Source of the DNA: a virus
Taxonomy: Duplodnaviria; Heunggongvirae; Uroviricota; Caudoviricetes
Reading direction: 5' to 3' (one strand)
DNA length: 56,670 nt
IMG/VR virus record: IMGVR_UViG_3300045988_159288
Part shown: piece after piece, positions 39,430 to 41,156 of the stretch
How positions within the stretch are numbered: position 1 is the stretch's first letter
Layout: every line of letters begins with the position of its first letter
Made by a program: the position numbers and the translations under genes
The notes under the pieces: generated by a model
The model's input: only the letters and a program-made list of their open reading frames with translations
What the model was told of the DNA's origin: nothing
Databases searched by the model: none

Positions 39430-39505
39430 GGCCCTTTAGCTCAGTGGTTAGAGCTGGCGACTCATAATCGCACGGTCACCGGTTCAAGTCCGGTAGGGGC
39501 CACCA
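39430..39505 (+). tRNA. tRNA-Ile2-like (anticodon CAT, ileX type, AUA-reading if lysidinylated)
   Basis: Acceptor GGCCCTT/AGGGGCC, anticodon loop CTCATAA, T-loop GGTTCAAGTCC, encoded CCA; near-identical by eye to E. coli ileX rather than tRNA-Met. Confidence 0.75.
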
Positions 39506-39747
39506 TATTTGGTTGTAACACGGCGTCTGGCACATGCGTCGTTAGCGGTCTGGTGACGTTAAAAGGGGGGAACCTTGCCCCTAGCTCAGGCAACGAACCA
39601 GGTAGCCGGAATGTGCAAGCCACCGTTTGTTGTTTCTCGGGTAAAGGGATTCACCATCCTGGCGATTCGGTGTGACAGCCGGGAAGAGTCCGGCGCATTA
39701 ATCCTGATTTTCTGGTGATGACTCATATCGTTAGGAGTGATTTGAGT

Positions 39748-39792
39748 ATGCCGATTATATCTGACATTCAGCACGCCTGGGTGGAGTGCTAA
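39748..39792 (+). CDS. 14-codon leader ORF translationally coupled to ban
   Basis: ATG after TTAGGAGTGA; encodes MPIISDIQHAWVEC; stop TAA overlaps the ban ATG (TAATG). Confidence 0.3.
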   Translation: MPIISDIQHAWVEC

Positions 39793-41156
39793 TGTCTGCA
39801 TCCCCTCTTGAATCCATGCCAAATTCCCTTAGTGCAGAACAAGCTGTACTTGGTGGCTTAATGCTTGATAACTGCCGCTGGGATGAAGTTGCAGATCGTA
39901 TAGTTGCTGATGATTTTTATACCAGTGCTCATCGTGAAATTTTCAGTGAGATGGAGAGGTTATTAAGTCATGGCAAACCGATTGATTTGATAACACTTGC
40001 TGAAGCACTTGAACAGAACGGTAAATTAGAACGCGCCGGTGGTTTTGCGTACCTTGCGGAGATGTCAAAGAACACGCCCAGCGCGGCAAATATTTGTGCT
40101 TATGCGGATATCGTTCGTGAACGCGCGGTTGTTCGTGAAATGATTTCCGTCGCAAATGAAATAGCCGAAGCTGGATATGCGCAGGATGGCAGGGGCAGCA
40201 ATGAATTGCTGGATATGGCCGAGCGCCGCGTTTTTGAAATAGCTGAAAAACGACAAAAGAGCGGTAGTGGTCCAAAAGATATCGCCAGCATTCTCGATGC
40301 AACGGTATCTCGCATAGAAGAGTTGTTTCAGCGACCACATGATGGTGTAACGGGGCTTGATACGGGATTTACCGATCTCAATAAGAAGACGGCAGGGCTT
40401 CAGCCGTCCGATCTCATCATTGTCGCCGCCCGCCCATCTATGGGGAAGACCACGTTTGCGATGAATCTCGTCGAAAATGCCGCAGTTCGTAACGATAAGC
40501 CCGTATTGGTTTTTAGCCTTGAGATGCCGAGCCACCAGCTGATGATGCGCTCACTGGCTTCTCTTGCACGCGTTGATCAGACTCGTATTCGGACAGGGCA
40601 ACTTAACGACGAGGATTGGGCGCGGGTTTCTGGCGCAATGGGTATTCTGTTGGACAAGCAGAATATTTTTATTGATGACTCAAGCGCCCTGACACCTACA
40701 GAGCTTCGTTCCCGCGCTCGTCGTGTTTATAAAGAAAATGGTGGTTTGAGCATGATTATGATCGACTACCTGCAACTTATGCGCGTCCCCGAGCTGCAAG
40801 ATAACCGAACGCTGGAAATTGCCGAGATTTCTCGCTCACTGAAGGCGTTGGCGAAGGAATTACAAGTACCGGTGGTGGCATTGTCACAACTTAATCGATC
40901 GCTTGAACAGCGTGCGGACAAACGACCGGTAAATTCAGATTTACGTGAATCAGGAGCAATTGAGCAGGACGCAGACCTGATCATGTTTCTGTATCGCGAC
41001 GAAGTTTATCACCCGGATAGCGAAATGAAGGGCATTGCCGAGGTAATTATCGGAAAGCAACGAAATGGCCCAATTGGCACGGTGAGATTGGCTTTTAACG
41101 GCCAATACTCACGGTTTGATAACTATGCTGGTGCTGACTGGCAAGAGGATTATTAA
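39792..41156 (+). CDS. ban: Replicative DNA helicase, DnaB analogue
   Basis: DnaB N-terminal domain, Walker A GKT, RecA-like C-terminal domain. Start taken as ATG 39792; the track uses GTG 39786. Confidence 0.85.
   Translation: MSASPLESMPNSLSAEQAVLGGLMLDNCRWDEVADRIVADDFYTSAHREIFSEMERLLSHGKPIDLITLAEALEQNGKLERAGGFAYLAEMSKNTPSAANICAYADIVRERAVVREMISVANEIAEAGYAQDGRGSNELLDMAERRVFEIAEKRQKSGSGPKDIASILDATVSRIEELFQRPHDGVTGLDTGFTDLNKKTAGLQPSDLIIVAARPSMGKTTFAMNLVENAAVRNDKPVLVFSLEMPSHQLMMRSLASLARVDQTRIRTGQLNDEDWARVSGAMGILLDKQNIFIDDSSALTPTELRSRARRVYKENGGLSMIMIDYLQLMRVPELQDNRTLEIAEISRSLKALAKELQVPVVALSQLNRSLEQRADKRPVNSDLRESGAIEQDADLIMFLYRDEVYHPDSEMKGIAEVIIGKQRNGPIGTVRLAFNGQYSRFDNYAGADWQEDY

Follow-up and report, generated by a model that had tools for sequence, protein, structure and literature searches.

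The stretch of DNA analyzed here (IMG/VR record IMGVR_UViG_3300045988_159288, Caudoviricetes; 56,670 nucleotides (nt), hereafter "the window") derives from a P1-type phage. It carries a transfer RNA (tRNA) gene, trnI, followed by ban, which encodes a DnaB-type helicase. The interval between these two genes was found to hold, in complete form, an RNA fold that is very common in temperate enterobacterial phages, is strongly supported and had gone unannotated. A first-pass annotation, made from the letters of the window alone, had described the interval as a structured leader of about 240 nt ending in a 14-codon open reading frame (ORF) that overlaps ban. Its coordinates were right (the untranslated stretch before the ORF is 242 nt long), but most of this "leader" is the widespread RNA core, which had been missed. 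The explanation that we consider best places four elements on one transcript, namely the tRNA, an antitermination-like core, the leader ORF and a hairpin over the ban ribosome binding site; taken as a whole, it is given an even chance of being correct. The features of the locus are as follows.

39430-39505, + strand: tRNA-Ile2 (anticodon CAU), the trnI of P1, with its CCA end encoded (ARAGORN, Rfam tRNA model, annotation of AF234172).
39506-39520, + strand: spacer UAUUUGGUUGUAACA from the tRNA 3' end to the RNA core, common to the mEp460-type pL leader (alignments).
39521-39694, + strand: conserved structured RNA core, 174 nt (covariation; covariance-model score of 156.8 bits).
39695-39747, + strand: P1-specific linker with the Shine-Dalgarno sequence of the leader ORF (AGGAG, 39733-39737) and an in-frame UUG at 39742 (sequence).
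39748-39792, + strand: 14-codon leader ORF MPIISDIQHAWVEC, in which codon 4 is AUA and the TAA shares one base with the ban ATG (sequence, ORF list).
39763-39796, + strand: hairpin pairing the ban GGAG (39783-39786) and AUG (39792-39794) with leader codons 6-10 (predicted fold).
39792-41156, + strand: ban, a DnaB-type replicative helicase of 454 amino acids (sequence, P1 records).

The earlier description of the leader as structured was sustained by comparison with relatives for 39521-39694, and the hairpin over the ban ribosome binding site was better than chance (see below). It was not sustained by folding energy, which was no different from that of shuffled sequence for either 39506-39700 (z = +0.10) or 39506-39830 (z = -0.51). 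For the comparison, 26 diverse copies of the core with less than 93% mutual identity were aligned. The helices drawn from this alignment were P1 (39521-25 with 39537-41), P2 (39549-53 with 39598-602, enclosing variable hairpins), P4 (39646-50 with 39656-60) and P5 (39678-82 with 39690-94), together with a pseudoknot between the P4 loop (39652-55) and 39669-72; a further variable hairpin lies at about 39620-39645. Several long unpaired segments between the helices are invariant: UAUGGCACAUG, AGCGGUC, GGUAGCCGGAAUGUGCAAG (a 19-mer at 39601-39619) and GGCGAU.

Standard pairs filled 94.7% of the helix cells, and changes on both sides were present in 12 of the 24 pairs. On four of five measures, none of 500 shuffles reached the observed value, and one did so on the fifth; when the pairing partners were slid by 1-3 columns, pairing fell to 32-43%. 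The P2 pair U39551-A39600 switches with C-G in perfect step (12 versus 14 sequences), as does the pseudoknot pair C39652-G39672 with A-U (22 versus 4 sequences). The helices were drawn from the same 26 sequences as were tested, which introduces some bias in their favor, but the slid and shuffled controls argue that this bias is not the explanation of the pairing. The RNA fold of the core is real. The complementary loop strands GCACAU (39530-35) and AUGUGC (39611-16) are both nearly invariant, so covariation is uninformative with respect to their pairing. Two features identify the + strand as the RNA: the U-G pair of P2, which is invariant, and the G-U pairs that are frequent in P1, since both would turn into A-C on the complementary strand. 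The alignment was also used to build a covariance model, which scored the window copy at 156.8 bits, on the + strand only and as high as any other copy, and returned exactly one copy per phage or locus.

The insert enclosed by P2 differs between lineages. In non-P1 copies (alignment columns about 41-84), its loop is nearly always UCCUUG(A) on a stem of varying sequence; the P1 lineage has two hairpins instead, with AACCUUG.

The core corresponded to no catalogued family. A search with Rfam 15 returned only the tRNA at the gathering score, and over 39380-39900 nothing at E values up to 10 on the + strand of the leader; the loci of five relatives yielded no family at E values up to 1, and the core sequence was not found printed in the literature searched. 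A T-box had been suggested by GGUACCGC in the terminator of one relative, and it was rejected for want of Rfam support. Protein coding was also rejected. Insertions and deletions among the copies interrupt the + strand ORFs at 39553-39675 and 39575-39718 and likewise a - strand ORF of 78 amino acids (39586-39822), inside which P7 has a 1-nt insertion. Substitutions at 39775, 39778 and 39781, spaced 3 nt apart, are synonymous in the latter frame; the same positions are internal-loop and loop bases of the ban hairpin.

The distribution of the core was examined by several searches. When 39506-39795 was used in a sensitive search, the whole stretch was matched by P1-type phages only, and its first ~186 nt matched, at ~79% identity, unannotated intergenic DNA of many unrelated temperate phages. 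The carriers include lambdoid phages (Stx2c-converting phages, cdtI, mEp460, Ayreon and 2H10), members of the epsilon15/phiV10 group (phiV10, TL-2011b, SPC32H and Tyrion) and one Klebsiella prophage. An invariant 24-mer (39596-39619) was present in at least 120 viral contigs, and its 19-nt core marked 23 genuine loci in representative genomes of Enterobacteriaceae species; a second motif search gave 58 confirmed core copies among 100 metagenome loci. The complete genomes of E. coli contained 2439 copies (1885 chromosomal, 554 on plasmids) in 1816 of 5426 genomes, and nearly all of the copies listed had no annotation under the match. The core was absent from the lambdoid cryptic prophages of K-12 that were checked (e14, Rac and Qin), and this may be the reason that K-12-based RNA surveys missed it.

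The surroundings of the core in other phages point to the control of transcription elongation. In mEp460 and Ayreon, the repressor gene and its terminator are followed by an operator-flanked pL and, some 30 nt downstream, by the core; the operators around pL match in type those found between cI and cro. Repressors and operators differ between these two phages, but the core is shared. Lying about 30 nt after a repressor-controlled pL, the core is therefore the first RNA made from that promoter. A strong intrinsic terminator, in most cases of -15 to -24 kcal/mol, follows the core by 320-670 nt and precedes the first protein gene in all but 2 of 108 distinct downstream regions (contexts other than those of P1 and D6). 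In the lambdoid phages, this core-terminator unit separates pL from all early-left genes. In mEp460, the first gene downstream of pL is not N-like, as its product has no arginine-rich motif and no Pfam family. In the phiV10/epsilon15 group, a promoter-like TTGACA-17-TACCTT precedes the core and a tRNA-Arg(UCU) follows it; two strong terminators come next, and then a protein gene with no promoter-like site before it.

The put antiterminator of phage HK022 acts in cis on RNA polymerase via the beta-prime zinc-binding domain. The core may play the part of put, as an antiterminator acting in cis, with a pseudoknotted fold of unrelated type and no dedicated protein; by analogy, this role is offered as a tentative possibility. 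It would allow the RNA polymerase by which it was transcribed to continue past terminators or Rho sites. A terminator in such a position, close behind pL and ahead of any protein gene, is intelligible only if something overcomes it, and cis-acting antitermination is therefore favored; this is the logic of put in HK022 and HK639 (PMC9378689). If the reading is true, the core would license the whole early-left operon in lambdoid phages without N and would make P1 transcription of ban and dbn resistant to termination.

The likeness to put lies in position. The lambdoid core is the first RNA from pL, upstream of intrinsic terminators and with no N-like gene next to pL, and it is likewise an early-operon leader before terminators in the phiV10-type relatives; the P1 copy has no downstream terminator. 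The differences are those of architecture and occurrence. The put RNA is ~70 nt long with two stems (PMC9378689), whereas the core has ~174 nt, four or five helices and a pseudoknot, occurs once per phage and extends to phages of the P1 and epsilon15 types, where it neighbors tRNA genes. What prompted the idea that the core belongs to the put family was a short likeness to stem I of put (ACGGCG..CAUGCGUCG..AGCG), and the idea was rejected. This likeness is not significant: blastn gave only a 15-nt match at E = 4, nhmmer gave E values of 5.8-38 at putL, and the covariance model had no match at E values up to 10 in HK022 or HK639.

Lambda-type nut sites were also considered. P5, a 5-base-pair hairpin with the purine-rich loop GAAGAGA, recalls boxB, and the 3' strand of a further helix, P6, reads UGCUCUY in relatives and recalls boxA. 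Unlike the situation at nut, there is no N-like protein next to pL, and the P5 sequence is replaced in some metagenome copies. A boxA/NusB-NusE site was rejected: UGCUCUY forms one strand of the covarying P6, some copies have another sequence in its place, and P1 lacks it. Two candidates from the literature, the Pas small RNAs (lysis region) and the nut sites of mEp021, are unrelated to the core.

P6 is a long-range helix (CAACGAUGAGAGCA with UGCUCUCAGCGUUG) that is present in most relatives with clear covariation, and mEp390-type copies have a different 3' extension. Because the P1 copy has no P6 and the mEp390 type has another 3' extension, the 5' core is taken to be an autonomous unit. In the phiV10 type (locus L004, 2742-2815), the last helix of the core runs directly up to the 5' end of tRNA-Arg(UCU). 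In 18 variants of the mEp460 type (locus L003, about 2690-2735), it abuts instead a 129-nt segment that is closed by a 7-base-pair GUGGUGA/UCACCAC helix and may be a tRNA-like processing signal. The mEp460 terminator after the core (GGCGGTACCAG...CTGGTACCGCTCTTTTT, L003 about 2739-2790) recurs at ~90% identity over ~40 nt in more than 100 unrelated phage records, among them HK620, HK633, Klebsiella and Escherichia phages of ~46-49 kb and Klebsiella phages of ~160 kb.

The junction with tRNA-Arg bears on a different account, in which the core is a non-coding RNA that is stable, acts in trans (for instance as a decoy, a sponge or an anti-defense RNA) and is released by tRNA-processing enzymes: by RNase P at the abutting tRNA-Arg 5' end in the phiV10 type, and by 3' processing of tRNA-Ile in P1. 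The terminators would then merely end an RNA gene. A promoter, the core, a tRNA or tRNA-sized segment and one or more terminators do resemble a self-contained RNA gene; P6 ends exactly at the first base of tRNA-Arg, and the long invariant single-stranded stretches suggest recognition of a partner. We nevertheless find this account doubtful, given that in the lambdoids a terminator between pL and the early-left genes would block the operon unless overcome, that no target or partner was identified and that the P1 core has neither a promoter nor a terminator of its own.

Several points weigh against the antitermination role. The layout of promoter, RNA, tRNA and terminator fits a stand-alone RNA gene equally well, and the core has no sequence or model similarity to put. 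The P1 copy is without the long-range helix P6. No intrinsic terminator was predicted from the P1 core to the end of dbn, which leaves an antiterminator at this site without an obvious target except Rho; in P1 the core would be either limited to acting on Rho-dependent termination, within a long stretch that is not translated, or idle.

Downstream of the core, the linker (39695-39747) was matched by P1-type records only and is invariant among P1-type leaders. The overlap of the 14-codon ORF with ban was as previously described: its ATG is at 39748 and its TAA at 39790-39792, and the ban ATG at 39792-39794 shares one base with the latter (TAATG). The AGGAG at 39733-39737 is placed 10 nt before the leader AUG, and the ban GGAG at 39783-39786 is placed 5 nt before the ban ATG. 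The predicted hairpin at 39763-39796 had a free energy of -17 kcal/mol, made up 73% of the ensemble and scored z = -2.70, with 2 of 200 shuffles as good; it persisted when the core was forced into its conserved fold. A long-range pairing of 39654-39664 with the ban Shine-Dalgarno region was dropped in favor of this local hairpin and of P4 and the pseudoknot, which are supported by covariation.

In all, 105 P1-type leaders comprising 15 sequence variants were collected. The leader ORF was intact in 104 of them, a count with little power given that the region is nearly invariant, and the sole exception has a Mu-like insertion at 39755. Variants of the leader peptide were A10T, W11R, V12M/G and C14Y. 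Because these changes fall on four of the last five residues, the sequence of the peptide appears to matter little; if so, it is therefore the act of translation that matters, not the peptide. Nine positions vary in the hairpin, four of which (39775, 39778, 39781 and 39782) are in the loop and internal loop. The stem pair G39771-C39789 changes from G-C to G-U, and to A-U in two contigs (one compensatory pair).

In the IMG/VR contig L214, Mu-like DNA is joined inside the leader ORF at the equivalent of 39755, with the ORF start and Shine-Dalgarno sequence lost and ban intact. By eye, the translation of the Mu-like DNA resembles gemA/mor. This junction is a natural disruption of the leader ORF.

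Coupling of two genes by an upstream ORF whose translation unmasks a structured ribosome binding site is known from icd-ant of the P1 immI operon and from coat and replicase of RNA phages. The first-pass annotation had proposed that ban translation depends on translation of the leader, and the predicted hairpin makes such coupling somewhat probable. With the 5' arm of the hairpin inside the leader ORF, there is a concrete mechanism for it. Ribosomes that enter the leader ORF from its own Shine-Dalgarno sequence would unwind the hairpin that locks the ban ribosome binding site, and the same ribosomes would terminate on the ban AUG (TAATG); by opening the hairpin and stopping on that AUG, they would couple the translation of ban to that of the leader. 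As in icd-ant or coat/replicase coupling, the leader stop overlaps the downstream start, and the ban Shine-Dalgarno sequence and AUG are in a predicted hairpin whose other arm is in the upstream ORF. Unlike in those systems, the upstream ORF is of only 14 codons, and its peptide varies toward the C-terminus as described above.

Against coupling stand the following. The comparative test of the hairpin was not significant (200 of 500 shuffles were as good), although its power was low. The GGAG of ban is its own and is at a good spacing. The Ban of Cronobacter phage JK004 is 83% identical, and the region upstream of its gene is different, having a terminator-like hairpin and AGGGAG and no leader ORF. 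This phage supplied the one Ban homologue at 83%; all 80 relatives from viral contigs were at 99-100% identity.

The last of these points is shared with an account in which the P1 core is a passenger that recombined in with the tRNA, lost its 3' part and is idle for ban, with ban using its own Shine-Dalgarno sequence and the leader ORF being incidental. Besides the JK004 ban without such a leader and the GGAG 5 nt before the ban ATG, this account is favored by the lack of both P6 and a downstream terminator in the P1 copy, by the mosaicism of the region (an SPFH gene replaces tciABC in the window variant) and by D6, which has the tRNA and the full core but no ban. We judge it unlikely. The P1 copy scores as high as any in the covariance model and keeps every conserved helix, the existence of other 3' variants (mEp390 type) indicates an autonomous 5' core, and free initiation at ban would be inefficient with its ribosome binding site held in a hairpin of -17 kcal/mol.

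A further account arises from the unconstrained fold of the P1 leader, which pairs 39653-39666 (the 3' strand of P4 and the linker) with the Shine-Dalgarno region of the leader ORF and thus offers an alternative conformation. On this account, the core is a leader of the riboswitch or attenuator type that senses a ligand or factor; it would choose between termination and read-through in the relatives and, in P1, would control access to the leader-ORF ribosome binding site. The pseudoknotted fold and the invariant unpaired stretches match the complexity of an aptamer. The terminators, on the other hand, lie 150-500 nt past the core with unrelated sequence between, unlike a compact expression platform; the sequence resembling an anti-Shine-Dalgarno is not conserved (mEp460 has UAACCAGCGUGG), and there is no link to any metabolic gene. 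A sensing role is very unlikely in our estimation. Both the passenger and the sensor are less likely than a trans-acting, stand-alone RNA gene.

The tRNA upstream of the core had been described in the first-pass annotation as having a CAT anticodon and an ileX-like body, and ARAGORN and the Rfam tRNA model each recovered it at 39430-39505. Its identity to the chromosomal ileX of E. coli K-12 derivatives is 89.5%. This part of the description is correct but was already known, as P1 GenBank records label trnI as tRNA-Ile2 (CAT), 89% identical to ileX; alone, the tRNA is textbook P1 biology, and what the annotation added to it was a reasonable idea about ban. The isotype call of isoleucine was taken from the RefSeq (PGAP) annotation of 100%-identical copies from P1-type plasmids, which are labeled tRNA-Ile. 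In a similarity search of the 5426 complete E. coli genomes, all of the matches listed were annotated as tRNA-Ile and none as tRNA-Met. The label "Met" assigned by ARAGORN reflects the anticodon alone.

In common with ileX and ileY of E. coli, which decode AUA in a lysidine-dependent manner, trnI has a CAU anticodon and the same acceptor stem at 1-5/68-72. The anticodon arm is the same as that of ileX except at position 43, where the change makes 27:43 a G-A mismatch. There are eight differences from ileX in all: U6-G67 for C6-G67, positions 26, 43 and 44, and compensating substitutions in the T stem. Unlike ileX and ileY, trnI is phage-borne and lies inside the ban operon. The acceptor-stem pairs C4:G69 and C5:G68 are the same as in ileX, and E. 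coli TilS relies on pairs 4:69 and 5:68 (PMC11947777). Once cut from the transcript, tRNA-Ile2(CAU) would read AUA after lysidine modification by the host TilS.

Codon usage agreed with this proposal. AUA accounts for 10.5 per 1000 codons and 17.7% of isoleucine codons in 48 long ORFs of the window. That is more than twice its frequency in E. coli K-12, which is roughly 4-5 per 1000 (7-8% of isoleucine codons). Codon 4 of the leader ORF (39757-39759) is AUA, the rare codon decoded by the tRNA-Ile2 that is encoded 250 nt upstream on the same transcript. Judged from the sequence, ban translation could be sensitive to the supply of tRNA-Ile2 via this codon; its presence could also be due to chance, given an AUA usage of ~1%.

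With respect to the locus as a whole, 38500-41200 is 100% identical to Punavirus P1 records and is 98-99.7% identical, over the shared part, to P1, P7, RCS47 and SJ46. The order in the reference P1 record (AF234172) is Pban with the C1 operator Op72, a dicF-like region, tRNA-Asn, tRNA-Thr, plp and upl on the opposite strand, and then tciABC, trnI, ban and dbn. The gap between trnI and ban in that record is 286 nt and bears no annotation. The trnI gene sits within the ban operon, and the locus is the promoter-distal part of that operon.

Other elements of the window were noted. In place of tciA, tciB and tciC, this variant has an SPFH/Band_7 lipoprotein gene (38575-39402, + strand) whose ~87% identical counterpart in Stx-converting and other lambdoid phages is labeled "serine protease" or "SPFH domain protein". 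A strong intrinsic terminator at 36781-36803 (+ strand; GTTTGCCCATCTTCGGGTGGGC followed by a T run) precedes the tRNAs within the ban operon and appears to match the "dicF-like" region of P1 records. Transcription from Pban must cross this terminator before it arrives at ban. Rfam matches elsewhere in the window were isrK, C4 antisense RNA and sok (16199-16277, 16322-16409 and 20239-20413); mEp460 also has C4 and isrK, near its Rha gene.

The core is among the commonest unannotated conserved non-coding elements found in E. coli prophages and phage-plasmids, being present in about one-third of complete genomes, and its covariation support is as strong as that for curated RNA families. In lambdoid phages lacking a recognizable N gene, it opens the early-left operon. 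Should it prove to be an antiterminator, just one other RNA class would share its demonstrated ability to reprogram bacterial RNA polymerase with no dedicated protein, and it would explain early-gene expression in such phages, Stx2c-converting ones included. If it is instead a trans-acting RNA freed by tRNA processing, it would be a new phage RNA. For P1 itself, the leader ORF and hairpin provide a directly testable model for how the phage limits the production of a DnaB-type helicase.

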